Assembly: GCA_000934665.2 (NCBI GenBank)
Contig: JYFJ02002180.1
Span: 1 to 61,505 of the forward strand
DNA: 61,505 nt
Source: Catajapyx aquilonaris
Lineage: Eukaryota
Direction: 5' to 3'
Under the pieces are notes generated by a model, which made no database searches, was not told where the DNA came from, and was given only the letters and a program-made list of their open reading frames with translations. This document shows, one piece after another, positions 10,766 through 51,927 of the stretch. The translations under genes and the position numbers were made by a program. Position 1 is the first letter of the stretch, and every line of letters starts with the position of its first letter.

Positions 10766-10846
10766 AACACATATATCGTCAAGATAAGGCACTGTCAATA
10801 TTCTGTCTTGCACCCGTCACTGTTCCTTGTTGCGAAGAGGGTTGAT

Positions 10847-17322: not shown

Positions 17323-18201
17323 ATGATGCTGCTCTTTTCTCTGTTGATGTTCTTGGTCGCCGTCCTGGCGAAAGCTGAAGAAATTGTACGTACATGGTGA
17401 TCACTTGTACGACGAAATCTGTTGGCACTAAACTAAATCAATTGCTATTTGTTTAAATGTAACAATGACATTTACACCCATTTTTCTGCGCCAGTCAAGC
17501 CAATGCGGACCGCTCCCTGCACATGATGAAATTCCTAATCCTGATGGAATGTTTCGTGCACAATCAGATATTTGCGAGGCAAATGGAGAGGAGCAAAAGG
17601 TAAGTAGTAATATTCTACAAGTATGCAGTTCCCTAATTGTCAGACTTTGCCTACGCTCTGATTAAATTGTCGTAAAAAATATTGCTACTGGAGTAAGCCA
17701 AGTGTTGATATCTTATTTCAAATTTCAGTGTCTCATGCAATGTTCAATGGAAGCACTTCATGTGGTATGTATTTATCCAAATCATCATGCCATTATTTTG
17801 CGAAAATAATTAATCAACAATTTTATTAACCCTGTTTCTGACCTCCATTAGCTAGACGACGATGGCGAGATAGACCCGGAGAAGTTGGCCAACATAATGA
17901 TACCCACCTGGGGATATGATGAGCTCAAAGCTGTCCTAGCTGAAAGTGTTAGAAAATGCGAAACTAAAAGTAAAGATTGCCCTTATTTTATGGCATGTTT
18001 GTTGCGAGGAAATTAATTTGTTGACATTATCTGTCAATCATTTCAGTGCGAAGATATTCAGCATTTGCGGATGATTCGTGTGTACTGAAGGAAAAGGTTG
18101 CAATGTGCACTTTCATGCACTTTATTGAGGTATACTTCACTACAATCTTTAATTTGTTGCAATATTGAACAACCGTTTCTTTGCAGAAATGTTCTGCCTA
18201 A
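17323..18201 (+). CDS. OBP-like secreted protein A1 (8 Cys), ~139 aa
   Basis: Exons 17323-17385, 17495-17599, 17729-17764, 17852-17969, 18047-18129, 18187-18201. Signal peptide, then C-x22-C-x8-C-x3-C-x42-C-x14-C-x8-C-x8-C with LDDDGEID after C3. Confidence 0.82.
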
Positions 18202-18764
18202 TGAGGAAGATCTATGAACAGGCAGAAACACAAAGGAATCCAACATGCATATCTCATAGTTTATAATCCAACAAAGTCTAACTAAACCCATTATCAAAAA
18301 CTAACGAAAAATTCTTGCTACACAAAATGCATTTTTTTCCCTGCAGAAATGCATTTTGACCCAGGTAACTTTCAGTATGTAGACTACCAAAGTTTCTTAT
18401 AAGCAGTTAATTCAATTTATACTTTCCTTCCACCTGCTGAGCAACCTCACCGCACCTTACCTCCCTTTTGATGAATGTTTTCCAAAATTCTGTCTACATC
18501 GAATAGAAGAAAAATCAAGAAAATATGGGTCAGAATAAAAAAACCATTCACAATGTTCATTTTATTGCTTCAGTCATCCCCACCCATGCCTCCTTTACTA
18601 CATATAATTTGAAAAGTCAAAATAGAAACAAGAAGTTATATACGGATTCGAATTTTAGTTAAGTTTTTTTTTAAATATTTTTCTGAAGGGTCATATTATT
18701 GGTCATTGCATCTTCCAGTGTCCAGTGTACGGTCATCGATCTTACTCTTTCAGCCATCTTCTTA

Positions 18765-19685
18765 TTACATGACACGCACGTCACACTCCTAAAACGGAAT
18801 GATTTTAAGCAATGACAATTAATACATTATAAATTATTGTGTATAACTTACTTCTTCATATGGACGGAATGCACAATTGTAAATTTCGGCATATTTTTCA
18901 GGGCAATCATCACTAGCTGAAAACGTAAACGAATGTATTTACCAAACTATTCTGAAATATATTTTTTCTGATTATCTGATTAACCAATGATTGTACCAAT
19001 ACCTTCTGAGACGCATTTAGAAATTTGTCCTGTCAAATAGGCCTTGGCTTCATCGCTTCCTGCAGGGAAATGAATGCTTTGGACAACATTTTCTGGTATC
19101 AAGTTACCTTCATCATCAAGCTGGAATAAAACCAAGTCGGTTTGTATAACTAATGATTACAAGCAAAAAAAAGTTCCGGACAACGGATCCTGGTGCTATG
19201 AAACCGTCAATATTCTCGCAAAGTGAAGGTCTTCTTTTCATTACTTCCACCTTGCTAAAGTGCTGATGGTTAAATAGCTCCTGCATACAATATTGATTGA
19301 TTTTTTTCTATTTGACAAAGTACATACCCAGTTAATCATATCCATTATGCACATCGCCATGTCACACTGGAAATAAAAATTCACGTTGCAAGAGACATTC
19401 TCTTGGATAATAATAATAATAATAATCGTTGCATGCACAATACTCTGACCTCATCTCCAGCAGCTTCACAGGTTTGAGAGACGCCGTAAAGCATCCATCC
19501 ATGGCCTTCCCTCCATTTAGAATCAGGTTTTGCGCAATAGCTAGGCTTATCTGGCTACATGATTGTGGATTAGTAAACCGTTTTCCAAATGCAATTACTC
19601 CCATGCTACTTACTTGGTCATCAGCATTCACCACCAAAGCTGAGAGAAGCAGCAGAAACGAAAAGGTCAGCATAGTCGCAGGCAT
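18765..19685 (-). CDS. OBP-like secreted protein B1 (8 Cys), ~140 aa
   Basis: Exons 19685-19614, 19554-19450, 19366-19328, 19120-19003, 18916-18852, 18788-18765. Pattern C-x21-C-x6-C-x4-C-x42-C-x7-C-x9-C-x8-C; same intron phases (0,0,0,1,0) and 118-nt exon 4 as A1. Confidence 0.82.
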
Positions 19686-19832
19686 CCGTCAACCGGAATG
19701 AAGTATGTTACTTGCAACAGTAGATTGTTGATATCAACTGAGTCTTGCTGTACTGTTTCCGCAACACATAGATGTAATGGCACACTCTGTTCATGTAATC
19801 ATAAGTGTTTTATGTTGATACCGGTTATGCCG

Positions 19833-20166
19833 AACTAGCAGGATACCCGGCGTTGCTCGGGTTATGAAATATTTTTCCATAGGAGTGACTCATAGGAGGT
19901 GTTGGAAACCAGTATTACCCAAGACAGCGCTACCATTGTGGCGTTTATCCACGTTGGGCGCCATTGTGACGGCCCGAGGTTCGCCCCGGATCCGCCCCTA
20001 GCTAGCTCATACCAAGCAAACTAGGTGGGTTCGTTGAGCACTGGTTTATTGGACCTTCCTGGTCCCAACCTGAGTACAAACTGCCTTTTACGACGTAAAC
20101 CCGCTGGGAGGGAAAGGCCGGGTTCCACCACCAATAGGGTGGTCAGGGTCAAACAAGTTACAATGT
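19833..20166 (+). mobile_element. Non-autonomous element fragment (Helitron/HINE-like 5' hairpin) at duplication junction 1
   Basis: Begins AACTAGCAGGAT followed by hairpin ACCCGGCGTTGCTCGGGT (19845-19862). Absent from the outer flanks of the array. Confidence 0.5.
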
Positions 20167-20357
20167 TCCAACTGGAAGGAAGTGTTTCTATAGGAATTTT
20201 ATGCAACACTCTAATCGTGCTAATAAACATGCACAGCATTATCATTCAGGAGTAGGTATGGGCATGATGATAATTTATTTCTGGTTGCTTTCACAGTGGA
20301 GTATAGTAGAGATTAGACCATTGTCATCATTCTGCACAGTGTGTGTGAACTGCGACA

Positions 20358-21245
20358 ATGATCCTGCTCTTTTCTCTGTTGATGTTCTTGGTCGCCGTTC
20401 TGGCAAAAGCTGAAGAAATTGTACGTACATGGTGATCACTTGTACGACCAAATCAGTTGCACTAAACTAAACCAATCTGTTTATTACATTTAAAAAAATG
20501 TAACAATGACATTTACACCCATTTTTCTGCGCCAGTCAAGCCAATGCGGACCGCTCCCTGCACATGATGAAATTCCTAATCCTGATGGAATGTTTCGTGC
20601 ACAATCAGATATTTGCGAGGCAAATGGAGAGGAGCAAAAGGTAAGTAGTAATATTCTACAAGTATGCAGTTCCCTAATTGTCAGACTTTGCCTACGCTCT
20701 GATTAAATTGTCGTAAAAAATATTGCTACTGTAGTAAGCCAGTGTTGATAATTATCTTATTTCAAATTTCAGTGTCTCATGCAATGTGCAATGGAAGCAC
20801 TTCATGTGGTATGTATTTATCCAAATCATCGTGCCATTATTTTGCGAAAATAATTAATCAACAATTTTAATAACCCTGTTTCTGACCCCGATTAGCTAGA
20901 CGACGATGGCGAGATAGACCCGGAGAAGTTGGCCAACATAATGATACCCACCTGGGGATATGATGAGGTCAAAGCTGTCATAGCTGAAAGTGTTAGAAAA
21001 TGCGAAACTAAAAGTAAAGATTGCCCTTATTTTATGGCATGTTTGTTACGAGGAAATTAATTTGTTGACATTATCTGTCAATCATTTCAGTGCGAAGATA
21101 TTCAGCTTTTGCGGATGATTCGTGTGTACTGAAGGAAAAGGTTGCAATGTGCACTTTCATGCACTTTATTGAGGTATACTGCACTACAATCTTTAATTTG
21201 TTGCAATATTGAATAATCGTTTCTTTGCAGAAATGTTCTCCCTAA
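20358..21245 (+). CDS. OBP-like protein A2
   Basis: Near-identical copy of A1 with all six exons open, ending KCSP-stop; about 5 amino-acid differences from A1 by manual count. Confidence 0.82.
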
Positions 21246-21782
21246 TGAGGAAGATCTATGAACAGACAGAAGCACAAAGGAATCCGACATGCATATCTCA
21301 TTGCTTAAAATCCAACAAAGTCTAACTAAACCCATTATAAAAAACTAACAAAATTTATATTTTTGGTCTACAGCAATGCATTTTGACCTAGGTAACTATC
21401 AGTATGTACCAATGTTTCTTATAAGCAGTTAATTCAATTTATACTTTCCTTCCACCTGCTGAGCAACCTTACCTCCCTTTTGACGATAATTTTCCAAAAT
21501 TCTGTCTACATCTAATAGAAGAAAAATCAAGAAAATATGGGCCAGAATAAATCCATTCACAATGTTCATTTTATTGCTTCAGTCATCCCCACCCATGCCT
21601 CTTTTACTACATATAATTTGAGAAGTCAAAATAGCAACAAGAAGTTATATAATTCATTTCGAATTTTAGTGAAGTTTTTTTTAAAATTTTCTAAAGGATC
21701 ATATTATTGGTCATTGCATCTTCCAGTGTCCAGCGGTGTCCAGTGAATGGTCATCGATCTTACTCTTTCAGCCATCTTCTTA

Positions 21783-22702
21783 TTACAGGACACTCACGTC
21801 ACACTCCTAAAAAGGAATGATTTTAAGCAATGACAATTAATACATTATTATTTTGTATAACTTATTACTTCTTCATATGGACGGAATGCACAATGGTAAA
21901 TTTCGGCATATTTTTCAGGGCAATCATCACTAGCTGAAAACGTAAACGAATGTATTTACCAAACTATTCTGCAATATATTTTTTTCTGATTATCTGATTA
22001 ACCAATGATTGTACCAATACCTTCTGAGACGCATTTAGAAATTTGTCCTGTCAAATATGCCTTGGCTTCATCGCTTCCTGCAGGGAAATGAATGCTTCGG
22101 ACAACATTTTCTGGTATCAAGTTACCTTCATCATCAAGCTGGAATAAAACCAAATGGGTTTATATAAGCAATGATTACAAGCACAGGTCTAGTCAATGCC
22201 AAAAAAGTTCCGGACAACGGATCCTGGTGCTATGCAACCGTCAATATTCTCGCAAAGTGAAGGTCTTCTTTTCATTACTTCCACCTTGCTAAAGTGCTCA
22301 TGGTTAAATAGCCCTTGCATACAATTTTTTTCTCCATTTGACAAAGTACATACCCAGTCAACCATATCCATTAGGCACATCGCAATGTCACACTGGAAAT
22401 AAAAATGCACATTGCAAGAGACATTCTCTTGGATAATAATAATCGTAGCATGCACAATACTCTGACCTCATCTCCAGCAGCTGCACAGGCTCTAGAGACA
22501 CCGTAAAGCATCCATCCATGGCCTTCCCTCCATTTAGAATCACTTTCTGCGCAATAGCTGGGCTTATCTGGCTACATGATTGTCGATTAGCAAAACGATT
22601 TCCAAATGCAATTACTCCCAGGCTACTTACTTGGTCATCAGCATTCACCACCAAAGCTGAGAGAAGCAGCAGAAACGAAAAGGTCAGCATAGTCGCAGGC
22701 AT
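21783..22702 (-). CDS. OBP-like protein B2
   Basis: Copy of B1 with six open exons and 8 Cys, ending ECDVSVL-stop. Confidence 0.8.
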
Positions 22703-22848
22703 CCGTCAACCGGAATGGAGTATGTCACTAGCAACAGTAGAATGTTGATATCAACTGAGTCTTGCTGTACTGTTTCCGCAACACATAGATGCAATGGCAC
22801 ACTCTGTTCATGTAATCATAAGTGTCCATGTTGATACCGGTTATGCCG

Positions 22849-23146
22849 AACTAGCAGGATACCCGGCGTTGCTCGGGTTATGAAATACTTTTTCATAGGA
22901 GTGACTCATAGGAGGTGTTGGAAACCAGTATTACCCAAGACAGCGCTACCATTGTGGCGTATATCCACGTTGGGCGCCATTGTGACGACCCGGGGTTCGT
23001 TGAGCACTGGTTTATTGGACCTTCCTGGTCCCAACCTGAGTACAAACTGCGTTTTACGACCTAAACCCGCTAGGAGGGAAAGGCCGCGGGTTCCACCACC
23101 AATAGGGTGGTCAGCCTGGTGGTCAGTGTCAAACAAGTTACAATGT
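22849..23146 (+). mobile_element. Second copy of the junction element
   Basis: Same sequence as 19833-20166, lacking 50 bp between two GGTTCG direct repeats. Confidence 0.5.
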
Positions 23147-23335
23147 TCCAACTGGAAGGAAGTGTTTCTATAGGAATTTTATGCAACACTCTAATCGTGC
23201 TAATAAACATGCACAGCATTATCATTCAGGAGTAGGTATAGGCATGATGATAATTTATTTCTGGTTGCTTTCACATTGGAGTAGTAGAGATTAGACCATT
23301 GTCATCATTCTGCACAGTGTGTGTGAACTGCGACA

Positions 23336-24230
23336 ATGATGCTGCTCTTTTCTCTGTTGATGTTCTTGGTCGCCGTTCTGGCAAAAGCTGAAGAAATTGT
23401 ACGTACTGTACATGGTGATCACTTGTACGACCAAATCAGTTGCACTAAACTAAACCAATCTGTTTATTACATTTAAAAAAATGTAACAATGACATTTACA
23501 CCCATTTTTCTGCGCCAGTCAAGCCAATGCGGACCGCTCCCTGCACATGATGAAATTCCTAACCCTGATGGAATGTTTCGTGCACAATCAGATATTTGCG
23601 AGGCAAATGGAGAGGACCAATAGGTAAGTAGTAATATTCTACAAGATTAGTATGCAGTTCCCTAATTGTCAGACTTTGCCTACGCTCTGATGAAATTGTC
23701 GCAAAAAATATTTTTACTGTGGTAAGCCAGTGTTGATAATTATCTTATTTCAAATTTCAGTGTCTCATGCAATGTGCAATGGAAGCACTTCATGTGGTAT
23801 GTATTTATCCAAATCATCATGCCATTATTTTGTGAAAATAATTAATCCACAATTTTAATAACCCTGTTTCTGACCCCCATTAGCTAGACGACGATGGCGA
23901 GATAGACCCGGAGAAGTTGCCCAACATAATCATACCCACCTGGGGCTCAAAGCTCAAAGCTGTCCTACCTGAAAGTGTTAGAAAATGCGAAACTAAAAGT
24001 AAAGATTGCCCTTATTTTATGGCAGGTTTGTTACGAGGAAATTAATTTGGCGACATTATCTGTCAATCATTTCAGTGAGAAGATATTCAGCATTTGCTGA
24101 TGATTCGTGTGTACTGAAGGAAAAGGTTGCAATGTGCACTTTCATGCACTTTATTGAGGTATACTGCACTGCAATCTTTAATTTGTTGCAATATTGAACA
24201 ACCGTTTCTTTGCAGAAATGTTCTGCCTAA
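23336..24230 (+). pseudogene. OBP-like A3 pseudogene
   Basis: AAG to TAG nonsense change at 23621-23623 (end of exon 2), plus an in-frame 3-nt loss in exon 4. Confidence 0.8.
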
Positions 24231-24765
24231 TGAGGAAGATCTATGAACAGGCAGAAGCACAAAGGAATCCGACATGCATATCTCATAGTTTAAAATCCAA
24301 CAAAGGCTAACTAAACCCATTATAAAAACTAACGAAAAATTCTTGCTACACAAAATTCATTTTTTTCCTGCATTTTTGACCTATGGAACTATCAGTATGT
24401 ACCAATGTTTCTTATAAGCAGTTAATTCAATCTATACTTTCATTCCACTTGCTGAGCAACCTTACCTCCCTTTTGACGGATATTTTCCAAAATTCTGTCT
24501 ACATCGAATAGAAGAAAAACCAAGAAAATATATGTCATAATAAATCTATTCACAATGTTCATTTTATTGCTTCACTCATCCCCAGTTCCCCACCCATACC
24601 TCCTATACTACACATAATTATTTGAGAAGTCAAAACAACAACAAAGAAGTTATATAATTAATTTCGAATTTTAGTGAAGTTTTGATTTAATTTTCTGAAG
24701 GGTACATATTATTGGGCATTGCATCTTCCAGTATGGTCATCGATCTTACTCTTTCAGCCATCTTC

Positions 24766-25668
24766 TTATTTCGTGAGCCCCACATCACACTCCTAAAAGG
24801 GTATGATTTTAAGCAATGACAATTAATATATTATTATTTTGTATAACTTACCTTTTGATATGGACCGATTGCACATTCGAGAATTTCGGTATATTTTTCA
24901 GGGCACTCATCACCAGCTGAAAACGTAAACGGATAATATATTTTCCAAACTATTCTACAATATATTTTTTCTGATTATCTGATTAACCAATGATTGCATC
25001 GGTACCTTCTGAGACGCATTTAGAAATTTGCCCTGTCAAATAGGCCTTGCTTCATCGCTTCCTGCAGGGAAATTAATACTTTGGACAACATTTTCTGGTA
25101 TCATGTTACCTTCATCATCAAGCTGGAATAAAACCAAGTCGGGTTGTATAACCAATGATTACAAGCAAAAAAAAAAAGTTCCTGGTCCTATGAAACCGTC
25201 AATATTCTCGCAAAGTGAAGGTCTTCTTTTCATTACTTCCACCTTGCTAAAGTGCTGATGGTTAAATAGCTCCTGCATACAATATTGATTGATTTTTTTC
25301 TATTTGACAAAGTACATACCCAGTCAATCATATCCATCATGCACATCATCAAGTCACACTGGAAATAAAAATGCACATTGCAAGAGACATTCTCTTGGAT
25401 AATAATAATCGTTGGATGCACAATACTCTGACCTCATCTCCAGCAGCTTTACAGGCTCGAGAGACACCCATCAGCATCCATCCATGGCTTTCCCTCCATT
25501 TAAAATCAGGTTCTGCGCAATAGCTGGGCTTATCTGGCTGCATGATTGTCGATTAGCAAAACTTTTTCCAAATGGAATTACTCCCAGACTACTTACATGG
25601 TCATCAGCATTCACCACCAAAGCTGAGAGAAGCAGCAGAAACGAAAAGGTCAGCATAGTTGCAGGCAT
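24766..25668 (-). pseudogene. OBP-like B3, frameshifted
   Basis: 1-nt deletion in exon 4 near 25049 (TAGGCCTTGCTTC versus TAGGCCTTGGCTTC in B1). The other exons are open, so an assembly error is possible. Confidence 0.7.
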
Positions 25669-26261
25669 CCGTCAACCGAAATGAAGTATATCTTACTTGC
25701 AACAGTAGATTGTTGATATCAACTAAGTCTTGCTGTACTGTTTCCGCAACACATAGATGTAATGCCACACTCTGTAATCGTGGGTGTATATGTTGATACC
25801 GGTTATACCGGATTATATTCTTCTGCAACCGCGACATCATTGCAAACGTGATCTATGATAATGTAGATCTCAGTAATACGTAAAGGGACGTACATTTCAT
25901 GATTTATTTTATTTCACTTTCCCATGACATACAGTTGAAACATTACATGGACTAGAAAATTTAAAAAATAAACAGTATGAGCCCAAACATAAATGCTAAA
26001 ATATATGCTTAAACTCTATGAAACCCTGTACTACCTGAATACATTCTTTTTGCACTCTGACATGATTTTTCCTTTAATAATATTTAAAATCAGGATACGA
26101 CATTAGTTTTATCTTTGGTCTTTGTCACTGAAGCTACTTTATTGTTACAATTTTCTTCCATGAATTTCCTGATATCAAACTACACAGTTAAATTCTCCAC
26201 CTCCTGTAAATAAAAACCTTAAGTCTAATGATATTCCGAATATGAATCCATGTGTCAGTAC

Positions 26262-27655
26262 TCAACGTACACAATAATTGTGTTCGTCATGCACCCTCTG
26301 CTTGCGTTGTGGGCAATCATGTGTCTTTAACCCTGACTCCTCAAAGTATGAAGTCCCGCATCCGTCGCAGAGGTCATTCTTTTCACATTTGTGCACCTTC
26401 CTAACATGCCTCTTAACTGCGGAAGGGCTGCTAAACTTCTTGTTGCAAGAAACGCAGTGGTTAGGAGATGTAACCTCCGGTTTGGGGCTGGTACTGAACT
26501 CAACGTCAACCGCCATGTCATTGTTCGGTACAAGGTTGTAAGTGATCGGCATCTCATCATTGTTACTGTCTTCTTGCACAGGGAACGTGGACTGATTGTA
26601 GTTGAGGGTCATCAAGTAACCAGTGATAAGAAAAGATTTCCGACCCTCTGCCTGCTGGTTCGTGGTGACAGTTGTCATTACACCTGGGCCAAAAGTCTGT
26701 GGAATTGGGCCAGACTTTTCAAACAAATGAATAAAATATAATCGCTACACTGCGACATGCAATAAAAACTTACCAACAATAAGAGACCATGAAAATGAAA
26801 TATTTACACTGTGATGCTCAAAATCAAGTTTGATCAAAATAAACAGTTAGATTAGGGCATGAAAAAATGAATTAAAATTTTGGTTTGTAGTGTCAGGCAA
26901 TAAAATCAAAAAGATATTTCTTACCTGTGACTGACCTGCACCCCTAGGGGCATCCAGAACTGTTACTTTCTTCAGGTAGAGTCCACAAACCTGTTGAAGG
27001 TGACGGAAGAGTGAAACACTGTATGCTGCGAATTTCATAATGAATTGACATATTTTGACCAACAATGGCAATATCTACCATAGTCAATACAATATTTGCA
27101 TAATGAAACTGCCATTTGCCATTGTGCAAATCACTCATTGGCAATATATGTTATGTTATAAAATTAAAAACTGATGTCCACATGAGATCAGAGTGGGCAA
27201 ATCCATGGAAAAAACTACCAAAACTACATGAGTGACCAAGTGACCTGCTCAAAACCAGGGACTCCCTCGGTCACCATAGGGCAGTAGTAGTCAGGGCTTG
27301 AAATGTCATCCGAGTTGTGACTTGTGTCTCCATTCTGCAGAGGTAACATGAAGGGCTCAAGAATGGAGCAATCGTCTGAGTCTGGGTCCATCGCGTCATC
27401 GGTGGTAAGGAAAGACTCTTCACCTCCTTCCTGCTGGCTGATGGGGACACTTGGTCCCGCTTCTGATGCAAAAGGCTGTGAGAAGACAAAGTCATAGTAT
27501 GGCACAGCTGTATGATTAGCAAAAGCAAGCAACAATGGATTTGGCCATGACAATAAGAGGCAGGACTGGGCTGCCTCGAAACCATTTCTTCCCCCAGTGG
27601 ACCTACGTACCTGTTGGTGACCGGTCCCCTCTCCGATGGCAAGATAGTGCAGCAT
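26262..27655 (-). CDS. Zinc-finger protein ZF-1 (one C2H2 and one C2HC finger)
   Basis: Proposed exons 27655-27611, 27475-27245, 26990-26925, and 26714 (or 26696)-26262. Motifs CVSC...HVRKVH and CDGC...HDC, with C-terminal EHNY. Confidence 0.72.
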
Positions 27656-28476
27656 CCCTGATTGTCACTTCGATGGGCGAAAGTGTGAAAGTGGCAGTGC
27701 CTAGACTGGGCGGACAGGTACAAAGAGACAATAGGAAACTATTTTCTTCGACCCCAAAGGACGCTAGCTCAGATGGCGCCACTCTACCACTACGGGACCG
27801 TTAAAACCATAGCTGCTGCTCAAAAATGACGTGATTTCCAGATAGCAGTGAGCGTGAGAAGAACGTTTGATGCTGCCACGGTTGCAGATTGACTCTTCTG
27901 GCACGGTGGTCATCTCAGTCTAGGTCGGTCGTACCATCCTACACTACCACATGCACTGTGGCAAGAGTTCGTGGATGTAAATATTGCAAATTCAAAATGG
28001 CTATATATTAGTGATGGAAATTAACTGCTCCTCCTATTAGTTCACGGCATTATTACAGAGTGTAAGGTCGATCCAGACCGGGACGGCCATCTTGCGTCCA
28101 ATGTCAGGCGGAAATTTAAATAGCAATGGTGCTGGGGGAAAATGGCTAAGTTGTTAGGGGGGAAAATATTAATTAAACCAGCGTTTCAATGAGGAGAGAT
28201 GTGGGTAGGGACGATGAGGTCTCGTTACCTTCGTTCATGCCCACAAATCTTGCAACTCTTCAGGCTGAAAGATCCCGATTGCATAACCCTCGTGCTTTTT
28301 TTTTTGCAGTTTATTTAGGAGACCGTATTACAACATCATGATACACACATTGCTGTGGAAAAGTAGTCATCCTCTGCATCATTTTAATCCATTCTTTTCC
28401 CTTCAGATTTTGCTTGCCGGATACTAAATTACCCTGTCGAGATTATCTTCCATGATTTTCCACCTTCTCAAACCAC

Positions 28477-39282: not shown

Positions 39283-39550
39283 ATGTTATTATATGTCATA
39301 AAACATTGCTTTAATGCGAGTGTTGTACAGCGACAATTATACAATGGTTATTTTCCTGAATAAATTACTATTCTATTGTTTTATAGTCACTAGTAGACTA
39401 CACCATTCCACATTTCCGGTTAAGGAGCCTGATATGTAACACACTCTGCTTGGAAAAATGTTTTGTAATCAGTTACATAAACCTAATAAAAGAGTCTTAT
39501 ATCATTTATCAATTTAATCAAGTTCGGGTCATATAACCAGCTCTAAAAGC

Positions 39551-39700
39551 CTGATAAGTAGTCAGAATGTTGTTTTAGCCAGTTTTTTGCTGATTCAGGG
39601 TGTAACTGATTATCCTACTATTTTTACACTTATCTCTTCCACGCCTCATACTATACAGCGGACTGGTTCTAATTTGGATACTTTTGTACATCAACATTCA
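39551..39700 (+). pseudogene. Remnant of a CYP4 promoter and first exon
   Basis: GGACTGGTTCTAATTTGGATACTTTTGTACATCAA is nearly identical to copy a exon 1 (34378-34412). A CTGATAAGT motif lies upstream; there is no ATG or continuation. Confidence 0.6.
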
Positions 39701-39971
39701 CATGGTCATCAAACCTATAGATTTAACTTTATTGAAACATTTATTACATTTTATGTCACAAAAAACACAGTTTCTACAGTATTAGGCAGTGGTATGGGTT
39801 CTTCACATTGGAATTGAACGAGATACTGTTGGCAACTATACTGTAATTGTATCACTTTTAGGATATCATTGATTTTAAAGGTGCGATTCTTTTTGTTTTT
39901 GAACCAAAGTGGTACGATAACCACAAATGAATGGTCCAAAAAGAATTCATTCTTTTTAACAGGTTTTATTT

Positions 39972-42220: not shown

Positions 42221-42551
42221 CACCAAACCATTGCAAATATACACAAGTACGAATGGTGATAACTAGAAAGACACCAAACAAGACGATAACTTATCTCTCA
42301 ATGTGAAAAGTGATAAAGTCACGACCCTATGCCACTTGCCAATCGGTGCTACTTTGCATGATAATATTAGCATTACGCTATGAATAAATTGAACGTGTTC
42401 CAATTAACAGAGATGTGCATTCTGGATGCTGAAAAAGTGATTATTATGACATCCAAAGTCCGGAATAATTTGTGAAGGTTTTAAATGAACAAAGTCAAAT
42501 ATAATTGTCCAGTCTGAATGTTTTATAGGTTACGAGTAGCTGCGTAGCATT

Positions 42552-44787
42552 TCATTTCTGGCGAGGTTTTAATCGGACTTTAAGCCCATATTTAGGTCGC
42601 AGAATAACCTCGCTGAGAATAATCATGTCCTCTCTACTCTCCATGGCAGTCACTTTGAACCTTCTCAATATGGTGGATATGATCACCTTCTGCTCCAGCA
42701 TGGCGAACTTCTGGCCTGAAATGAGTAATTTGTTATAATAATGCACAACCTGTGACTTAAACATGAATCATATACTAATACAAAGTAAGAGACATTACCG
42801 ATGCAGTTTCTGGGTCCAGCACTGAAAGGGACGTATGCAAATGGGTGTCTTTGTGCCACCCTGTCCGGCAAGAAGTGGTCTGGGTTGAACACCTCCGGGT
42901 TGGGGAAGTTCTCATGACGACGGTGGAGATTTACAAGAGATATCAGAAGATTAGTGCCCTTGAGTATCGTGCCATCAACTGGATAAATCAACAGAGATAA
43001 TTATTATTTTCATCTGCCATCAATGGATTAGACGACCTACTTATATGATGATACATACGGATAGTTATATTTTTCTCTATATGCCGCCCAATCATGGGTA
43101 CGCTCGGGTAGAGTCGAAGTGTCTCCTTGATGCACATGTCCAGGTAGGTCATCTGGGTCAGGTCAGACATGGTCGCCGGACGGTCGCTGTCCCCGAATAT
43201 TGAGTCCAGCTCTTCATGGACCCTTACCTGGTGATCGGGACTGGTGCCCAGGAGGAAGAGACACCAGCTGATGGCCATCGCAGTGGTGTCGTGACCCTTT
43301 AGGACACCTTTAGTTAAATTATAACATCGTGGGATGCATGCCACTTGCATTATTTTGGTCGAATTACCTCGAACATGAATGTGTCCACTTCTTCACGAAT
43401 GTCCTTCTCTGTCAGGGTTTCGTCTTCCTCTGCACATTTTAGCAGCTGGTCCAGAAAAGCCAGTCTCTTCCTCTTTTCATCTGCATATTCAGGATAATTA
43501 GCAGTATACATGACAGGAACTTCCATCGCCCTACCGGTGTCGACGTCTGATGTTTTACTTATTGAACCTATTTCCTTCTGGTGCAGCAATTCCTCTCTGC
43601 GTTTCTTAATCACCTGTAGGAGAATGCGAAACCAAGTGAATTTCCCGCCACCAATTTATCTCTCTCTTTGTACTTACATGATCTGTGTAGCCATGAAGAG
43701 TATGAAGAAGCTGCCTATGTTCACGACCAAGCTTCGTCAGCGAAAATATAAATTCTGAATGCAGCCAGGGGCGTAAATTTCTGTATGCGAATATTTCCGT
43801 GACTCTGAAATGGTATGACTTACATTTCTGTTATTTTGGTTGTCAATGTGAAGCTGTTACTGATACCTGTTTATAGATCGAATATACTCTGAATCCCTGT
43901 TGGTTTGCGTTCCTAATTTTACACCCATTGTTGCCTCTGCGAATAGAGCAGAACTTTAAATCACGTTAAGGGTTATAATGTAAGTAGGGTTATGCTTACC
44001 ACAAATGATGTCTAATGTGCAAGGAGTAATGTGCGACACAAGGTCAAAGTCACTCGTCTCCTTCTTCAGAATTGTCAACAAGATTTGACTTTGGTCGTTA
44101 AAAACTTTGATGAACTCTTCCAGTATCTGGAAGTGAAATGCTGGTGTCAGCATCTTCCGTCTTGCGGACCATTTCTTCCCTGCCACACCAGAAGGAACAA
44201 TCCAATTAATATGCAGTCCTTCTGGCAGGTCAGTTTGACCTCACCTGTGCTTAGCAGCAGTCCATTTCCTAACCATGGCCATATCAACTCATATTGCATA
44301 GACTTGGTAATGTGTTCCTTGCTGCTCAGAAGCACCTGACAATATCAAGGATCTGTTAAATTATTGTGCAAATATTATATTTTTCCTCACTCTCCACATG
44401 GCTACATACCCCCACAGCATCAGGTGCTTCCACCTTCCCAATTTCCCATAGCCCCAGCCTCAAACGATCCACAGGACTGAGAGGTGTATTCAATGCTCCT
44501 GCCCATCGTATTAGGTGATAAATATCTATTTTTTAAAAATTCGTGACAGTTAATGAAACAATAATAAAAGTAAGTACACAGTCGCACTAACCGTCTTGTT
44601 TCAGAAATGCAAATTCCAAGGTCTTTCCAATGAACGGAATACCGAGCATTCTCCTGAAGCCGTTTCCATCCTTGCTAACACTCACTCTGTGGAAGTTGAT
44701 GTACAATACTAACCACAGTGTAATAACTGCAGTTACAGCATACCCTAATAAGTAGGAGAGAGAGATAAACGAAGACACTTCCATCAT
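42552..44787 (-). CDS. Cytochrome P450, CYP4 family (copy d)
   Basis: Starts MMEVSS; all CYP4 motifs present; ends LKPRQK-stop. Confidence 0.92.
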
Positions 44788-45173
44788 CACACCACGGCAA
44801 GTAATGAAGTTGAATTGGAATAAACAGCAAAGACACAAAGTATCAACAACAAGACGATAACCTATCTATGGAAAGCCATCACCCTAACGTCCTTTAGATA
44901 TAAATATATCAATGTCATTCAGTTTCACATTATCTTATATTTATTGGACACACTTCAATATTTTTGTTAATTTTTATTTGCATTTTATTGAAGGTTTGTC
45001 ATACTGACAATGCCTTGACATTGTACCTGGAGCTTTTGATTGGGCTAAACGTGAATGGAAATCTAATAGAAAACAAATGTATATACGGTATGCATTTTTT
45101 AATTACGCAATTATCTCATGTTGAGCACTTTCAAAGCCATAGATTTGATCTTAGCGTAATCAATGATGGCTTC

Positions 45174-47445
45174 TCACTTCTGGCGAGCTTCTATTCGGAT
45201 TCTGAGCCCATGTTTTGGACGCAGAATGATATCCGGAACAATGGTCACGTCCTCCCTCCGCTCCATGGCAGTCACTAGGAACATTCGCAAAATGGTGGAT
45301 ATTATCACCTTCAGCTCCAGCATGGCGAATCTCTGGCCTGCAATTAGTAGGTTACACACAGAAATACACGGATTATGGTATAAGACAAGAGATATTACCG
45401 ATGCAATTTCTGGGTCCAGCACTGAAAGGGATGTAAGCAAAGGGGTGTCTTTGTGCCACCCTGTCCGGCAAGAAGTGGTCTGGGTTGAACACCTCCGGGT
45501 TGGGGAAGACATCGTGGCGACGATGGAGATTCACAATAGATATCATCAGATTAGTTCTCTTGGGTATCGTGCCACCAACTGGAATAACAAAATATCTGCA
45601 ATCAATTGACGACAATCAACTCCTTTCGATGAATCTTACGGATGGTCATGTCTTTCTCTAGTTGGCGCCCAATAATTGGTACGCTCGGGTAGAGTCGAAG
45701 GGTCTCTTTGATGCACATGTCCAGGTAGGTCATCTGGGTCAGGTCAGTCATAGTCGCCGGACGGTCGCTGTCCCCGAATATTGAGTCCAGCTCTTCCTGA
45801 ACCCTGACCTGGTGATCGGTACTGCTGCCCAGGAGGAAGAGACACCAGCTTATGGCCATCGCAGTGGTGTCGTGCCCCTTTAGACCACCTTTATTTCTAT
45901 TATACCATAGTGAAAAGATTAAAACTTGCATTGGTCGAATTACCTCGAACATGAAGGTGTCCACTTCTTCACGAATGTCTCTCTCAGTCAGGGTTTCGTC
46001 TTCCTCTGCACATTTTAGGAGCAGATCCAGAAACGCCAGTCTCTTTCGCTTTTCGTCTGTATATTCAGGATAATAATTATTACCCTACATAGTTCACGAT
46101 GACATGCACTTCCATCATGTATGCTGGTGTGAACTTACCTGTGTCGGCATCTGATGTTTCACTCGTAGAACCCATTTTCTTCTGCTGCAGTAATTCCTCT
46201 CTGCGTTTCCTTATCACCTGAATGAGAATACGGAACTACAATCATGATGAAAACCAGACATGTCGCTTTTCGTACTCACATTATCTGTGAAGCCATGAAG
46301 GGTATTAAGCAGCCGCCTGTTTTCACGTCCAAACTTCGTCAACGAAAATATAACTTCCGAATGTAGCCATGGTCGAAAATGTCTGTACATGAATATGTCA
46401 GTGACCCTGAAAAAGATATGACATGCATTCCTGTTATTTGACATTCCAATGTATCAATAGTGCTATTGTACTGTACCTGTTTATGGATCGAATATATTCC
46501 GAATCCCTGTTGGTTTGTGTTCCTAATTTTACCCCCATTGTTGCCTCTGTAAATAGAGCAGGATGTAAGATCAGACAAGTTTTTTCATTGAGGGTTATGA
46601 CATGCTTTGAAGTTGTAATTTCACTTCCATTATGAGGAAAATATCTGCCTTATCCAGGTTACAGAACATTGCAAAATATAGCTTACCACATATAATGTCT
46701 AATGTACAAGAAGTAACGTAGGACATAATGTCAAAGTCGCTGGTCTCATTCTTCAGATTTGACATCAGGATTTGACTCTGATCGTTGAAAATTTTGATGA
46801 ACTCTTCCAATATTTGGAAGTGAAAGGCTGGTGTCAGCATCTTCCGTCTGGCGAACCATTTCTTTCCTTCTAAACCAGAAGATTCATAAGTTATTATGCA
46901 ATCCAATGATTTACTAGTCTGTATGAACTCACCTGTGGTTAACAACAATCCATTTCCCAACCAAGGTCGTAACAGTTCGTACCCAAACGCCTTGGTAATG
47001 TGTTCCTTGCTGGTCAGAAGCACCTGATACATAAAAATATTAAATTGTATATTTTTCCATCTCCTTTCCCCACTATCTTGTGCATACCTCTATAGCCTCA
47101 GCAGTTGCTATCATCGCAAATTCGAATATTCCAACTCTCATGAGCTCCACATGACTCAGTGGCGAACACACTACTCCTGCAGATTGCACGGTGTAGTAGA
47201 AATCTACTCATTGAAATCAGTGATAGTGTCATGAAGCAACAAAAGCAATTACACATGCACTGACCGTCCTGTTGGACAAACGCATATTCCAATACTTTTC
47301 CAATGAACGGATACCCGAGAATTCTCTTGAATCCGTTTCCATCTCTGCTGACACTCACTCTGTGGATGTTGATGTACAAAACTAACCACAGTGCAATTAC
47401 TCCGGTTGTAACACACACTAACAAGTCGGAGAGACACACTTCCAT
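45174..47445 (-). CDS. Cytochrome P450, CYP4 family (copy e)
   Basis: Starts MEVCLSD; all CYP4 motifs present; ends IEARQK-stop. Confidence 0.92.
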
Positions 47446-47576
47446 CACCAACCCGCGAAAATGTATAGCAATAAACAGAACGAAGAGAAACCAGCAGATA
47501 ACTTATCTGTGGAGTGTAATGATAATAAGAAAGCCATGACCCTATGTCACCTGCTAATCTGATGCTTTTAGTCTGG

Positions 47577-47859: not shown

Positions 47860-49126
47860 ATGTACACTTCCAAGGTGCACACACGTAACTCTCCGAGACC
47901 TGAGGTGAAGAAAGTGAAATATATTAAGGATCCAGACCATTTTACCTACCTGATCGAACGGTACCTGCGAACAGATGAACCTAGTTACGATATCGACCAC
48001 GATACATTGCTCAAGTTCATCAAGACATATGTAAGTACCTCCAAGTACACTTATAGAGGCATTGTACTGATGAGACTCATATTTTCAGTTTGAACCAGCC
48101 ATAGAACCATGTGAATCCCTAAAACCAAAACCTATTTTGAAATACGGAATCCAGGCGGATAGAGCTCGTCATAATTCTACGAGTGCCCAACAGCGCTTCT
48201 TTAACATATACAGAGCGAAGAGAAGAATGGCAAGTACTGTATTGTTGACAAAATACAAAATGTTCAACGCTGATACACTGATTGTCTGGATCTGACAGCA
48301 GTAGATAAATTTTTGTACGAGCGCAACCGAGTGCGCACCCTCCCTTACGCAGCTCCTCTATTCGCAACATCGCAAACGTCGGTCATTTTGTTCCCCACCC
48401 CCAAGTGTACCGGTACACCCACTATACACAGAGCTTACCAACTATCATTGATAATTCCAACCGTGCACGCTGCGCCAACTGTCATGCGCACTGGGTTGCG
48501 CTCGTAAAAAAATCTTATAAAATCTTACTCTTTCACTGCAGCAATCGACTCTTAGTCCAGCTGCGTACGACATAAGAAGGTGGCCTAATCACATCCCACC
48601 TCGTTACATGCCCATGGCACCACCACCACCAATTGATGCTTGGGAATTAGATGAAGTGCCATTTTTGGAAAGGTTCCTCTGGTACCAGCCACCTAGAACC
48701 CGTCGTTACACGAAGGTTGCATTCGACGATCTCCCAGCTGATCTTCTCATCATGGAAGTGAGTTATTACTACCATTTGCTTATTATTACCTTTATAACAG
48801 TTGATTGTCACAATACGCCTACAAAATGTTTTTGTCTCTTGCAGCAGCAGCACCATCATCGTCTTCCTTCGGTTGGAGGCCAATCCGTAATGAGCACCCA
48901 GAAACTCCGTCGTTCCAAAGAATCCATCTTTGATGACGACTCAGCGAACCAGGCAATGATGCAAGCCGATTACTTGCGTAACTATCGGAAGATAGCTTCA
49001 GTTTGGAGTCCTCCGCATGTCGCAGTGTCGGATGGGGGGCTTCGTCAGAGACAGAGTTTGAGCAGACGTCCTTCATACATGGAACATAAGAAGCACTCTA
49101 CTACTTCTACTCATTCAAACCATTGA
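47860..49126 (+). CDS. Uncharacterised multi-exon protein, ~290 aa, no recognised domain
   Basis: CAACATG start; exon 1 47860-48030 with gtaagt donor. Further open exons from ~48089, ~48299, 48542 (to IME|gtgagt) and ~48845-49126. Internal boundaries are uncertain. Confidence 0.5.
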
Positions 49127-49390
49127 AGTGTACACTACTATGAAATAAAAAAGAACTGCCGTGAGGTGGTGCGGTCCAGACATACGTGTACATGGTACGC
49201 AGGAGGCAGGGGTGCCCCTCTACGTAGACGTACGGTGTCCAGACAAGCCCCTATACGTGTACGTGGTTCTATCCTTCTGTCAGGCGTTTTGTGTGGCCCG
49301 CGTCTACGTTGGGTTGGCTCCCCTGGGGTAGGAGCGGTTGGCGCGCTTGCGGGGGGGCCGCCCAGCGGAGGCGTGGGGAAACACACAAAG

Positions 49391-49441
49391 GGAGACGAGA
49401 GACACAGAGAGAGAGAGAGGGAGGGAGGGAGAGAGAGAGAG
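49391..49441 (+). repeat. Imperfect (GA)n microsatellite
   Basis: GAGA/GAGG run visible directly in the sequence. Confidence 0.8.
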
Positions 49442-49788
49442 GGTTTCTCCGTAATTGTGGAAACTACTACTTATTAACGTTTTATTGAAATTTTAGCAAA
49501 TCTAATTTAACTTTCATTATTTACAAGTATAGTCACGAGCGAGGGATTTTCGGGTTACATAATTCGTTATCTCTAGACGAAATGAGCAGGCCTGAAAATC
49601 AGCCAGTGTTTGTGGATAGACCAATCGGGGTCAAAACTAGATAGCTAAATCACCCTTGGCATCCTCGTCAAAAAAAATAAAAATAAAAAAATAACCAGAT
49701 ATAACAAAACGGACGTTCCGCGATAATTTCTCAAATTTTCCTGCAATTCGTGGATAAGGACGGTTCAATTTTTGGACGAGCATCAACA

Positions 49789-50529
49789 ATGATGAGACTT
49801 GCAGTACTTCTTCTGTTTGTGTGTCTGGCCTCAGCCGATGAAACAGTAAGTTACTTACTCCATTTATTAAAATAATATTTATTATTATTTACTTATCTGC
49901 AACAATCAGCCAAGCCACTGTCGTATTCCGTCAAGAAATGGTGATTCATCAACAGTCAGACGAATCCAAGCAGCTTATCGCGAATGTGCATCGAAAGAAA
50001 TCGAGCCAAGAGTATGTAGAGTCATATATTTTATAATACAACAGAGGTCATTGAGTCACATATTTTTCAGTGCATGTTGGAATGCCTGATGGACACAGTG
50101 GAAGTGGTAAGCTCATAATTTCGGATTTTAAAATGTGCAAAAATTAATTTTAACATTTTGGATACAGCTTGATGAGAACAGTGAGGTAGATGCTGAAGAA
50201 ATAGTGGATCTGTACATATCTGAGGAAGGATATGAAGACACCAAAGCTTTCATGGCTGATAAATTCCGCGAATGCATTTCAAACAGTAAGTTGCACTTAT
50301 TTTTAAAATAAATAAAATTAATAATGTTGTCTTTTTTTATAATAAGATTATGAAACGGATCAGTGTACTCGAGTCCAACAAACTGTGGAGTGTGGTAATT
50401 CAGCATTTGCTGAGGTACAGTAATTACTGTTTAAGTATGTGTGTGAAATGCTAATTTAAATTTATGTTATAGGAATGCGATGAATTCAACGAAGTAGAGG
50501 ACACTACAACACAACTATTCCAGGAGTAA
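49789..50529 (+). CDS. OBP-like secreted protein C (8 Cys), ~145 aa
   Basis: Exons 49789-49845, 49910-50011, 50071-50106, 50168-50285, 50347-50414, 50473-50529. Signal MMRLAVLLLFVCLASA; mature C-x21-C-x8-C-x3-C-x42-C-x9-C-x8-C-x8-C. Confidence 0.82.
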
Positions 50530-51146
50530 AATGCCTCACATAATTTGTCACATTTATGTCACATTTTTGTTCATCCATAAATATTCTCAGAAATGTAATT
50601 GGGCTGGAAAAATATTTTTCTATTCTTTTGGTGTAAAAAATAAAACTAATATTTTTAAGCTACGTTATCATCTGACATATTGCCAAATGTCACGACACCA
50701 TTGGTATTTCCATCTGCAGTCACATGCCTAATGATTAGGAATAATTAGTTCATTTGACATGTAAAGAGTGTAATCACTATACTGTGGGTTGGTGACATGC
50801 CACATATGCAGAAAAATCTTGAAGGTCAGTTTATAATATGTGAAGAAATCTAAACGCACTAGCTCCAAGTTCAGAGGGTCATTGTTGAAACGACAGAGTT
50901 GACATTAACTTTCATCCCGAATGGAACATACGCAATATGTACGAATGTTTAAACAAATAAATAAATACACATAACTCAAGGCCGTCACCAGTGTCCAATA
51001 GAAATCAACCTAAAACACATTTCCGAGAAAAAGTTTTAGATATTAGTCATATTACTTTACGTCACACCCAGTCATGTAAACAGCGATAGTAAACATGATT
51101 CATAGCAGACTATTTCACTCCCTGTGAGTAGTTTCATCCAGCAACA

Positions 51147-51927
51147 ATGCAACTCCTGGTTCTCCTTTTTATTGTGGCAACATTTGTCCTGGCAGATGAC
51201 GAAATAGTAAGTGTCCAGTTTGCACAATTTATTCCTCATAGGCTAATCTATCACTATTATGCCAGCCAGCTCATTGTCGCATGCCCTCCACTGATGTGAG
51301 TGAATCAGTCGGCGAGCGACTCTCAGCTGCAGAACGACAATGTTTACCCAAAGAACAAGAATACAGGGTGAGTTTAAAAATCATTGACCTATATACAGAA
51401 TGAGTCAACATCATGTCATCCAATATTATTCTGATTCAATTTATAATTATTACAGTGCTCTGAAGAGTGTGTGCTGTACCAACTGGGTGTGGTATGATTG
51501 TATCAAAATGCTGTACCTATAGTACAATGAGAAGCTGTCAAAACCCTTTTAAAACTCAGGTGAATGAAGAAGGAGGCTTAAAACCAGAGGAGTTGGCCCA
51601 TATACTAATTCCTGGATATGGGTATGACGCAACTAGAGAATTTTTGGTGGACAGTTTTCAGCAGTGTGCTGAGAAGGGTAGGTTCATACTCCTCAATATT
51701 TTGACTTAGCAAATTTTTGGGGCGATTCGTTTTTCTTTGTGTTGACAGATCATGCAGACATCTGCGGGGAGGCGAAGGCAGTAGCAGAATGTGGATACGC
51801 TAAATTCTGGATGGTTTGTAGCAATCTAGTAATTTTGATGACTTATGTGCACAACTAGCCAATATTAATCGTGATTTCCATATCATTTTGTCAGGAATGT
51901 GCCGAAATCCCCGAAAGAAGCATTTAA
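51147..51927 (+). CDS. OBP-like secreted protein D (8 Cys), ~137 aa
   Basis: Exons 51147-51206, 51266-51367, 51456-51491, 51560-51677, 51749-51813, 51895-51927. Pattern C-x21-C-x8-C-x3-C-x42-C-x8-C-x8-C-x8-C. Confidence 0.82.

Follow-up and report, generated by a model that had tools for sequence, protein, structure and literature searches.

In the available text of PMC5850775 and PMC4145409, the odorant-binding proteins (OBPs; PBP_GOBP, PF01395) are reported only from the Hexapoda, and insect OBP genes mostly begin with a signal-peptide exon followed by a phase-0 intron, according to an excerpt of PMC6175461. In Table 2 of PMC2808328, the cysteine pattern is given as C1-X25-30-C2-X3-C3-X36-42-C4-X8-14-C5-X8-C6 for the Lepidoptera, with an order-level range of C1-X20-35-C2-X3-C3-X27-46-C4-X7-14-C5-X8(9)-C6. 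The same source lists a spacing of C1-X6-8-C2-X18-19-C3-X2-C4 for the chemosensory proteins (CSP / OS-D) and quotes the Plus-C motif of Zhou et al. (2004), C1-X8-41-C2-X3-C3-X39-47-C4-X17-29-C4a-X9-C5-X8-C6-X9-11-C6a. The plus-C type-B OBPs of locusts contain eight cysteines, with an extra one preceding C1 and another following C6, as described in the available part of PMC6062766. The Varroa OBPs consist of five helices without helix 2 and have the pairing C1-C6, C2-C3 and C4-C5 in the portion of PMC8222343 used here, and VdesOBP1 reads C-x19-C-x26-C-x42-C-x20-C-x8-C when counted by eye in Supplementary Table S1 of that study.

The window, by which we mean the whole stretch of 61,505 nucleotides of DNA that was analysed, contains eight OBP-like genes of six exons each, six intact and two broken, at positions 17323-25668 and 49789-51927. 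A threefold tandem repeat at 17133..25810, with a unit of about 3.0 kb and about 90% identity, carries in each unit one gene on the + strand (P) and one gene on the - strand (M), arranged tail to tail; these convergent pairs correspond to the A and B triplets of the first-pass annotation. In a self-comparison with blastn, 17133-22848 matched 20167-25810 with 90.0% identity and 17133-19832 matched 23147-25810 with 89.6% identity. P1 (17323..18201, + strand; exons 17323-17385, 17495-17599, 17729-17764, 17852-17969, 18047-18129 and 18187-18201) is intact and encodes 139 amino acids in an open spliced frame with GT-AG introns and eight cysteines. It is convergent with M1 (18765..19685, - strand; exons 19685-19614, 19554-19450, 19366-19328, 19120-19003, 18916-18852 and 18788-18765), an intact six-exon gene for 140 amino acids. 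P2 (20358..21245, + strand; exons 20358-20420, 20536-20640, 20773-20808, 20896-21013, 21091-21173 and 21231-21245), the model of which was projected from P1, and M2 (21783..22702, - strand; exons 22702-22631, 22571-22467, 22392-22354, 22138-22021, 21933-21869 and 21806-21783) are intact copies with 96% and 91% amino acid identity to P1 and M1, respectively. The third copies are pseudogenes. The last codon of exon 2 in P3 (23336..24230, + strand) is an in-frame stop and its exon 4 has lost one codon (115 nt), while a 1-nt deletion in exon 4 of M3 (24769..25668, - strand; 117 nt) leads to a frameshift and an early stop.

The remaining two genes, C and D, are intact, have six exons and are placed in tandem on the + strand. 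C (49789..50529; exons 49789-49845, 49910-50011, 50071-50106, 50168-50285, 50347-50414 and 50473-50529) encodes 145 amino acids, and D (51147..51927; exons 51147-51206, 51266-51367, 51456-51491, 51560-51677, 51749-51813 and 51895-51927) encodes 137 amino acids. An AATAAA is located 109 nt past the stop codon of C. A tblastn search with the six intact proteins yielded 65 HSPs, none of which fell beyond the eight models. Upstream, at a distance of 3-14 kb, are four intronless ORFs for gustatory receptors (7tm_7) and one ORF for an ionotropic receptor (Lig_chan), and the CYP4 copies of the window group with the insect CYP4s with an SH-like support of 0.89. The DNA comes from an arthropod that is probably a hexapod.

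In the six intact genes, exon 1 codes for a hydrophobic leader that ends in A-K-A, V-N-A, A-S-A or V-L-A and is followed by a phase-0 intron; the leaders were called as signal peptides by inspection for small residues at -3 and -1, following the -3,-1 rule. Each intact product consists of this signal peptide and an acidic mature part of about 119-129 amino acids with eight cysteines, in which 22-31 D+E stand against 9-12 K+R and in which crude mean propensities are higher for helix (1.02-1.07) than for strand (0.93-0.95). All eight cysteines are invariant across the four subfamilies. The gaps between them are 22,8,3,42,14,8,8 in P, 21,6,4,42,7,9,8 in M, 21,8,3,42,9,8,8 in C, which has one further cysteine within the signal peptide, and 21,8,3,42,8,8,8 in D. 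The first cysteine sits in a coil rich in proline and glycine, and just 7-10 residues separate it from the predicted start of the mature protein.

If Cys 1, 3, 4, 5, 6 and 7 are taken as C1-C6, the six-cysteine OBP pattern fits three of the four subfamilies, with C and D matching the strict Lepidoptera pattern and P the Hymenoptera pattern as tabulated in PMC2808328 (Table 2); M fails, since its C2-C3 spacing is X4. When eight cysteines were placed at random in 120 residues, the strict pattern was obtained 9 times in 200,000 trials, the Hymenoptera pattern 70 times and the broad pattern 662 times. A classic core with one extra cysteine pair is the simpler reading because the strict pattern is that rare among random placements. 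This numbering results in a canonical C1-C2 gap of 28-31, and the very short C1-C2 segment described in the first-pass annotation is dependent on the numbering chosen there. The disulfides of the Bombyx mori PBP are 19-54, 50-108 and 97-117. The mature C protein has cysteines at 7, 38, 42, 85, 95 and 104, which, with an offset of 12 residues, is approximately the same ladder.

Members of the insect OBP superfamily are small secreted proteins with about 110-140 mature residues that form a six-helix bundle held by the disulfides C1-C3, C2-C5 and C4-C6, bind ligands and are typically expressed in chemosensory tissue. We consider it probable that the cluster proteins are divergent members of the insect OBP (PBP_GOBP) superfamily, with the classic core and an extra bridge. 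The classic pairs would then be 1-4, 3-6 and 5-7, compared with a classic PBP the N-terminus ahead of C1 would be shorter by about 12 residues, and a fourth bridge could connect Cys 2, between C1 and C2, with Cys 8, eight residues past C6. The products, with mature parts of about 120 residues, are predicted to be secreted, acidic and mostly helical, and to form a disulfide-braced helical bundle around small hydrophobic ligands. They probably function in the lymph of gustatory or olfactory sensilla, or serve as carriers of a more general kind.

One alternative, which we hold to be possible but unlikely, is that Cys 2-7 rather represent C1-C6, in which case the C1-C2 gap is 6-8, helix 2 is missing, and the last cysteine clamps a proline-flanked N-terminal tail through Cys 1. 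This would give a five-helix, four-disulfide OBP with the three insect bridges and a Varroa-like clamp from the N- to the C-terminus, which may be of the same type as the locust plus-C type-B proteins, where PMC6062766 likewise places cysteines before C1 and after C6 in the text available. The location of Cys 1 so close to the mature N-terminus, in a coil, speaks for such a clamp, as does the five-helix Varroa fold without helix 2 and with C1-C6, C2-C3 and C4-C5 bridges (PMC8222343, in the same portion as above). Furthermore, the x19, x42 and final x8 of VdesOBP1 resemble the x21/22 between Cys 1 and 2, the x42 between Cys 4 and 5 and the x8 between Cys 7 and 8, and W-[FL]-D-D-E-G is found at the same place in VdesOBP1 and M1. 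However, the numbering calls for a deletion of helix 2 that by luck left a cysteine at the canonical C1 site, in a strict pattern that is seen in so few of the random placements, and a spacing of 6-8 from C1 to C2 lies outside all classic ranges and, in M, below the Plus-C minimum of 8, as these are listed in Table 2 of PMC2808328. The exon-4 profile also missed the Varroa OBP chain in PDB at E<=10, and only about 7 of 42 residues are alike in VdesOBP1 over the x42 stretch, as judged by eye.

A more far-reaching hypothesis, which we regard as quite doubtful, is that the cluster encodes an undescribed four-disulfide form of OBP, in which a clamp like that of Varroa ties a proline-flanked N-terminal tail to the C-terminal end, the three classic bridges of insects remain and one of the N-terminal helices is absent. 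Such a form might be intermediate between the chelicerate/myriapod proteins and the insect OBPs, preserved in a lineage of hexapods or other pancrustaceans that is poorly sampled and may have branched off early. If true, the clamped four-disulfide form would represent a structural link of the OBP-like proteins in chelicerates and myriapods to the OBPs in insects. The novelty suggested in the first-pass annotation is weakened by the eight-cysteine type with one cysteine before C1 and one after C6 that the available part of PMC6062766 describes in locusts.

It is also conceivable, although in our view improbable, that the genes form a lineage-specific family without homology to the OBPs, whose secreted helical products are rich in cysteine and have a convergent cysteine spacing and a function other than ligand carriage. 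All profile and sequence searches with exon pieces and read-throughs were blank for OBPs, and M violates the X3 rule. Pfam gave no family match at E<=10 for any of the 14 exon peptides, nor for any of the four in-frame read-through translations, one of which spanned exons 2-4 of P1. In PDB, the exon-4 profile retrieved four sequences at E<=10, none of which was an OBP; the profiles of exons 2 and 5 gave no matches, and a read-through protein gave three, again none of them an OBP. The exon-4 profile was also run against two very large protein collections, with no match among 1100 word-sharing candidates and none among 1.84 billion representatives at E<=0.001. The queries were, however, weak in all of these searches, being either single exons of 21-40 residues or read-throughs interrupted by intron sequence, and the predicted fold of the read-through of P1 exons 2-4, introns included, was unusable at a mean pLDDT of 35.8.

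The sole external lead to another family was to the EF-hand, since a look-up of exon 4 with a language model led to EF-hand clusters at a score of 0.90 and 121-130 shared features, below the 170 that are typical of true family matches. A canonical EF-hand loop has 12 residues, with acidic residues at 1, 3 and 5, glycine at 6 and glutamate at 12. When the glycine of exon 4 is set at position 6, a hydrophobic residue falls at position 1 and a residue other than glutamate at position 12, and C has serine for the glycine; the loop is not canonical and an EF-hand was rejected. Non-homology to the OBPs is also countered by a fit to the classic pattern far above that of random placement, and by the size, the charge, the signal-peptide exon with its phase-0 intron and the chemoreceptor neighbours, all of which are as in OBP genes.

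That the models are no real genes at all, being chance open frames or decayed relics within the repeat, is barely credible: damage is visible in two of the eight copies and no annotated protein was matched in the protein collections searched, but the splice sites are canonical in 40 of 40 cases, paralogs of 24-36% identity agree in their phases, in exon sizes and in the eight cysteines, and six of the genes retain an intact frame with a signal peptide. Chance is excluded because four deeply diverged lineages keep the intron positions, the phases, the 118-nt exon and the eight cysteines, and the eight models are very likely real genes. The first-pass annotation had claimed eight six-exon models at this range with intron phases 0,0,0,1,0 and an exon 4 of 118 nt in the intact copies, and it was correct on each point: GT-AG borders all introns of the eight models, the phases follow from the exon lengths, exon 4 has this length in six of six intact genes, and the length of exon 3 is either 36 or 39 nt across the subfamilies. 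Its cysteine pattern was also recovered, except for the fifth gap, for which the values are 7, 8, 9 and 14, and so was the low overall identity, which is 24-36% at the amino acid level between the subfamilies P, M, C and D.

As further evidence for genes, the indels that separate the recent duplicates are confined to the introns, with 0 gapped nucleotides in exons and 13 in introns for P2 versus P1, and 0 and 41 for M2 versus M1. The exons of M3 have diverged more from M1 and M2 (9.7-10.7%) than have its introns (6.1-6.6%). The dN/dS ratio of the recent copies is 0.43 for P (8 changes) and 1.07 for M (18 changes), with too few changes for power. We hypothesize that the eight paralogs, in four old subfamilies, form a birth-and-death cluster, in which P and M were triplicated recently as a pair and in which the third copy of each has decayed. 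The family is of an ordinary kind.

Among the known systems, the CSP / OS-D proteins are set aside, as the run of gaps 6-8, 18-19 and 2 is absent in every member. The Varroa destructor OBP1, for which a structure has been solved, has in common with the family a cysteine in the N-terminal tail about 20 residues before the next, the x42 stretch, a W-[FL]-D-D-E-G that begins 7 residues past the cysteine opening this stretch in both VdesOBP1 and M1, and an x8 between the last two cysteines, all as judged by eye. It has six cysteines without the C-x3-C pair and a loop of 26 residues, compared with 11-12 residues here; with eight cysteines and a C-x3/4-C pair, and, by eye, with nothing shared beyond the x42 stretch with its opening motif, the family is not placed with the chelicerate OBP-like proteins.

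The interpretation in the first-pass annotation is supported in part, in that these are small, secreted, acidic and helix-prone proteins with eight cysteines, the C-x3-C, C-x8-C and x42 spacings characteristic of insect OBPs, and gustatory and ionotropic receptor genes as neighbours; the label of a minimal Plus-C form is not supported. As in strict Plus-C proteins, the cysteines number more than six and include an extra one past C6, and the terminal x8/9 followed by x8 recalls C4a-X9-C5-X8-C6. The differences are that the cluster proteins have no cysteine at the C4a distance and a last gap of 8, and lack the proline past C6 that is part of the Plus-C definition. If the last cysteine is taken as C6a, it is 8 residues past C6 rather than 9-11, and C4a is missing. 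The Plus-C motif, as quoted in PMC2808328, is matched by none of the four subfamilies, with a gap of 7-14 between the fifth and the sixth cysteine versus X17-29 from C4 to C4a, and strict Plus-C identity was rejected. The locust plus-C type-B proteins agree in the number and order of cysteines under the numbering of the first-pass annotation, a likeness by description in the available text rather than by compared spacings, and LmigOBP6 has 166 amino acids compared with 137-145 in the cluster.

Compared with the classic insect OBPs, the cluster proteins carry two extra conserved cysteines and only 7-10 residues before the first cysteine, and M has X4 in place of the otherwise invariant C2-X3-C3 and X9 from C5 to C6. 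They share with the classic OBPs the signal peptide and the phase-0 intron after its exon, a mature part of about 120 residues that is acidic and helix-prone, tandem duplication near chemoreceptor genes, and, through Cys 1, 3, 4, 5, 6 and 7, the ladder C1-X28-31-C2-X3-C3-X42-C4-X7-14-C5-X8/9-C6.

The OBP-like genes form four subfamilies, which we term P, M, C and D, and comprise eight models of six exons each, obtained by reading the sequence and assembling the exons by coordinates. Six of these genes are intact and two are pseudogenes. The P and M genes occupy a tandem array at 17133-25810, where three copies of a unit of about 3.0 kb stand head to tail with about 90% identity, and each unit holds one P gene on the plus strand and one M gene on the minus strand in convergent orientation. 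Gene C (49789-50529) and gene D (51147-51927) follow each other on the plus strand. Exon sizes range from 15 to 118 nt, the introns are bounded by GT and AG in 40 of 40 cases, and the exon lengths yield intron phases of 0,0,0,1,0. Exon 3 measures 36 nt (39 nt in M), and exon 4 is 118 nt long in all six intact genes. Both pseudogenes are located in the third repeat unit: in P3 the final codon of exon 2 is a stop and exon 4 is one codon short, and exon 4 of M3 carries a 1-nt deletion. None of the 65 HSPs obtained by tblastn with the six intact proteins as queries fell outside the eight models. The first-pass annotation had claimed eight six-exon genes that share a signal-peptide exon, these intron phases, a 118-nt exon 4 in the intact copies and an eight-cysteine spacing pattern in spite of low identity; all of these features were recovered in the assembled models, and the motifs that it named were found at 49910, 51266 and 19525-19545.

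On comparative grounds alone, the predicted models are very likely to be real genes. Protein identity between the four subfamilies is only 24-36%, yet they share every intron position and phase, a 118-nt exon and the full set of eight cysteines. The recent duplicates, P1/P2 and M1/M2, are 96% and 91% identical and have no indels in their exons, and the gapped intron nucleotides number 13 in P and 41 in M. The dN/dS ratios between duplicates, 0.43 for P and 1.07 for M, carry no weight because they derive from merely 8 and 18 substitutions. In the pseudogene M3, the exons have diverged more than the introns.

By inspection, exon 1 encodes a hydrophobic leader with small residues at positions -3 and -1, as is the rule for the ends of signal peptides, and it is directly followed by a phase-0 intron. 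Most insect OBP genes are described as having a signal-peptide exon, a phase-0 intron and then several short exons (Robertson et al., 2018, PMC6175461); explicit phase strings were not found in our literature look-up on OBP intron phases. Mature lengths are predicted at about 119-129 residues, the composition is acidic (22-31 D+E versus 9-12 K+R), and a crude Chou-Fasman estimate gives a mean helix propensity that exceeds the strand propensity.

The eight conserved cysteines, numbered Cys 1-8 in chain order, are separated by gaps of 22,8,3,42,14,8,8 residues in P, 21,6,4,42,7,9,8 in M, 21,8,3,42,9,8,8 in C and 21,8,3,42,8,8,8 in D. Xu et al. (2009, PMC2808328; Table 2 and Discussion) list classic patterns at the level of insect orders together with the Plus-C motif from Zhou et al., and the gaps were compared with both. 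If Cys 1,3,4,5,6,7 are taken as C1-C6 of the published OBPs, the strict Lepidoptera pattern given there is satisfied by C and D and the Hymenoptera pattern by P, and M departs from the classic pattern solely through a C2-C3 gap of X4. When eight cysteines were placed at random in 120 residues, the strict Lepidoptera pattern was obtained 9 times in 200,000 placements, the Hymenoptera pattern 70 times and the broad union pattern 662 times. Judging from the sequences, the four subfamilies are probably divergent genes of the OBP superfamily with a fourth disulfide, and to this extent the earlier interpretation stands. The label "minimal Plus-C" does not, since the eight-cysteine Plus-C motif in the form given by Xu et al. 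fits none of the four subfamilies; by their predicted cysteine patterns, the genes fall outside Plus-C as strictly defined. In the first-pass annotation, a very short C1-C2 gap was claimed, which belongs to one of two numberings: it requires Cys 2 to be C1 and disappears under the classic numbering, which C, D and P fit, and it is not forced because Cys 1,3,4,5,6,7 can serve as C1-C6.

Under both numberings, bridges are predicted for Cys 3-6 and for Cys 5-7; the only difference lies in the partner of Cys 4, which would be either Cys 1 or Cys 2, with the remaining one pairing with Cys 8. With Cys 2 as C1, the C1-C2 segment would be short and the first cysteine would pair with the last, an arrangement for which the mite Varroa offers a model: its OBPs have been described with five helices, helix 2 being absent, and an N-terminal tail clamped to the last helix (Amigues et al., 2021, PMC8222343). 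Counted by eye in Supplementary Table S1 of that article, the cysteine spacing of VdesOBP1 is x19, x26, x42, x20, x8, and a W-F-D-D-E-G motif begins 7 residues past its third cysteine; in M1, W-L-D-D-E-G likewise begins 7 residues past the fourth cysteine, within a matching x42 span. The description of the locust "plus-C type-B" OBPs, with one cysteine ahead of C1 and one behind C6 (PMC6062766), may also favor this numbering. However, over the x42 stretch the likeness to Varroa, judged by eye in the tabulated sequence, extends to roughly 7 residues in 42, and the Varroa chain was not recovered by the exon-4 profile in PDB at E<=10. We prefer the classic numbering, because no deletion of the core is required, and under this numbering bridges Cys 1-4 and Cys 2-8 would form beside 3-6 and 5-7. 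The bridges in the Bombyx PBP are 19-54, 50-108 and 97-117, and we take the cysteine positions of mature protein C to match these at a shift of about 12 residues, which suggests that the N-terminus of protein C is shortened relative to that of the Bombyx protein. An EF-hand identity for exon 4, which in the ESM Atlas fell with EF-hand clusters at 0.89-0.90 with few shared features, was rejected as the loop is non-canonical and the glycine not conserved.

Homology searches were run with exon peptides or profiles of 21-40 residues, or with read-through translations across the in-frame introns. In Pfam, no family was matched at E<=10 by 14 exon peptides, which are short queries, nor by four intron-interrupted read-through translations with X at stops. 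No OBP was among the PDB matches of the exon-2, exon-4 and exon-5 profiles and a read-through protein. The exon-4 profile, used to seek longer proteins in a word-indexed protein collection, gave 1100 candidates with none at E<=10; it gave none at E<=0.001 among 1.84 billion representatives, and 594 pattern matches with none confirmed in metagenome contigs. An AlphaFold2 model of the read-through of P1 exons 2-4 had a mean pLDDT of 35.8 and was discarded. These blank searches weigh against close kinship to well-known OBPs, although they test it weakly: every query either spanned 21-40 residues or was broken up by junk sequence. The exact cysteine spacing was not found described in a limited, keyword-bound literature search, and we make no claim that it is unpublished.

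Upstream of the OBP-like genes are four intronless gustatory-receptor ORFs of 352-398 aa on the minus strand (3391-4548, 5476-6558, 11252-12448 and 13515-14573; Pfam 7tm_7, E 1e-12 to 1e-17), which are tandem paralogs with 65-81% DNA identity in a self-blastn. A related fifth ORF of 199 aa (10217-10816) has no Pfam match and may be a truncated copy. Inside this array sits a divergent, intronless ionotropic-receptor ORF of 683 uninterrupted aa (6931-8982, minus strand; Lig_chan, E 4e-10), for which the word-indexed protein collection yielded no relative at E<=0.001. Within the P/M array, a GC-rich element of about 330 bp is placed between M and the P gene that follows in repeat units 1-2 (19830-20160 and 22850-23170), with a 112-aa ORF (22835-23173) in unit 2; it may have been left by a transposon or SINE, and Rfam and tRNA scans across the window gave no match, this element included.

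Between the P/M array and genes C and D are three paralogous C2H2 zinc-finger ORFs on the minus strand (26262-26744, 28477-28953 and 32246-32833), in a region where 28058-29501 and 31821-33170 are duplicated with 72-82% identity, and five CYP4-type P450 copies (34815-47559; two plus, three minus; 72-84% DNA identity). CYP4 copy 2 has an in-frame stop near 38855-38870, and may be a pseudogene or reflect a misplaced intron boundary. With a CYP4 exon as query, 2436 relatives were obtained at E<=1e-10, the best just 55-61% identical and from insects, decapods and chelicerates alike, and the ESM Atlas gave only generic P450 clusters. In a FastTree analysis of the five copies and matches with a best HSP above 120 residues (shorter ones dropped, taxon labels typed by hand), the clade of window copies groups with 10 sequences (7 insects, 2 unnamed, 1 nematode-labelled) at SH-like support of 0.89, and all 25 crustacean sequences attach at the next node. 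These results point to an arthropod host from an unsampled lineage, probably a hexapod; coming from a single paralogous family, this is weak evidence on taxon. Just upstream of gene C, a 201-aa ORF without Pfam match (48521-49126, plus strand) is followed by a GA/GGA-rich microsatellite (49380-49450). Downstream of the OBP-like genes are two tandem SLC13-type sodium:sulfate/dicarboxylate symporter genes on the minus strand (53505-56340 and 57515-60137; Na_sulph_symp, CitMHS; 86-89% identical), in a region with a GC content of 0.54 versus about 0.42 in the remaining window.

OBPs are the main soluble carriers in insect smell and taste. This compact and well-preserved eight-cysteine cluster, from a lineage without a close relative in public protein sets, adds a data point on whether they originated outside or at the base of the Hexapoda. 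Insect-type OBPs are described as known solely from Hexapoda (Pelosi et al., 2014, PMC4145409; Eyun et al., 2017, PMC5850775), and distant OBP-like genes have been reported in chelicerates and myriapods (Vizueta et al., 2017, PMC5381604). The significance would be greater if the organism were an early-branching hexapod or a non-hexapod, or if the extra bridge were the N-to-C clamp of the mite OBP-like proteins; such an unusual organism or fold would raise the interest, which is otherwise modest. As things stand, the main gain is annotation, and with exons this tiny, automated pipelines may overlook the six intact genes and two pseudogenes. In loose usage, Plus-C is a common name for OBPs that exceed six cysteines (PMC3428353), and the locust plus-C type-B proteins, compared here by the number and order of cysteines as described (PMC6062766), represent an eight-cysteine type that is already known. 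Because both this loose usage and the locust type exist, we count the OBP-like cluster as additions to a known kind.
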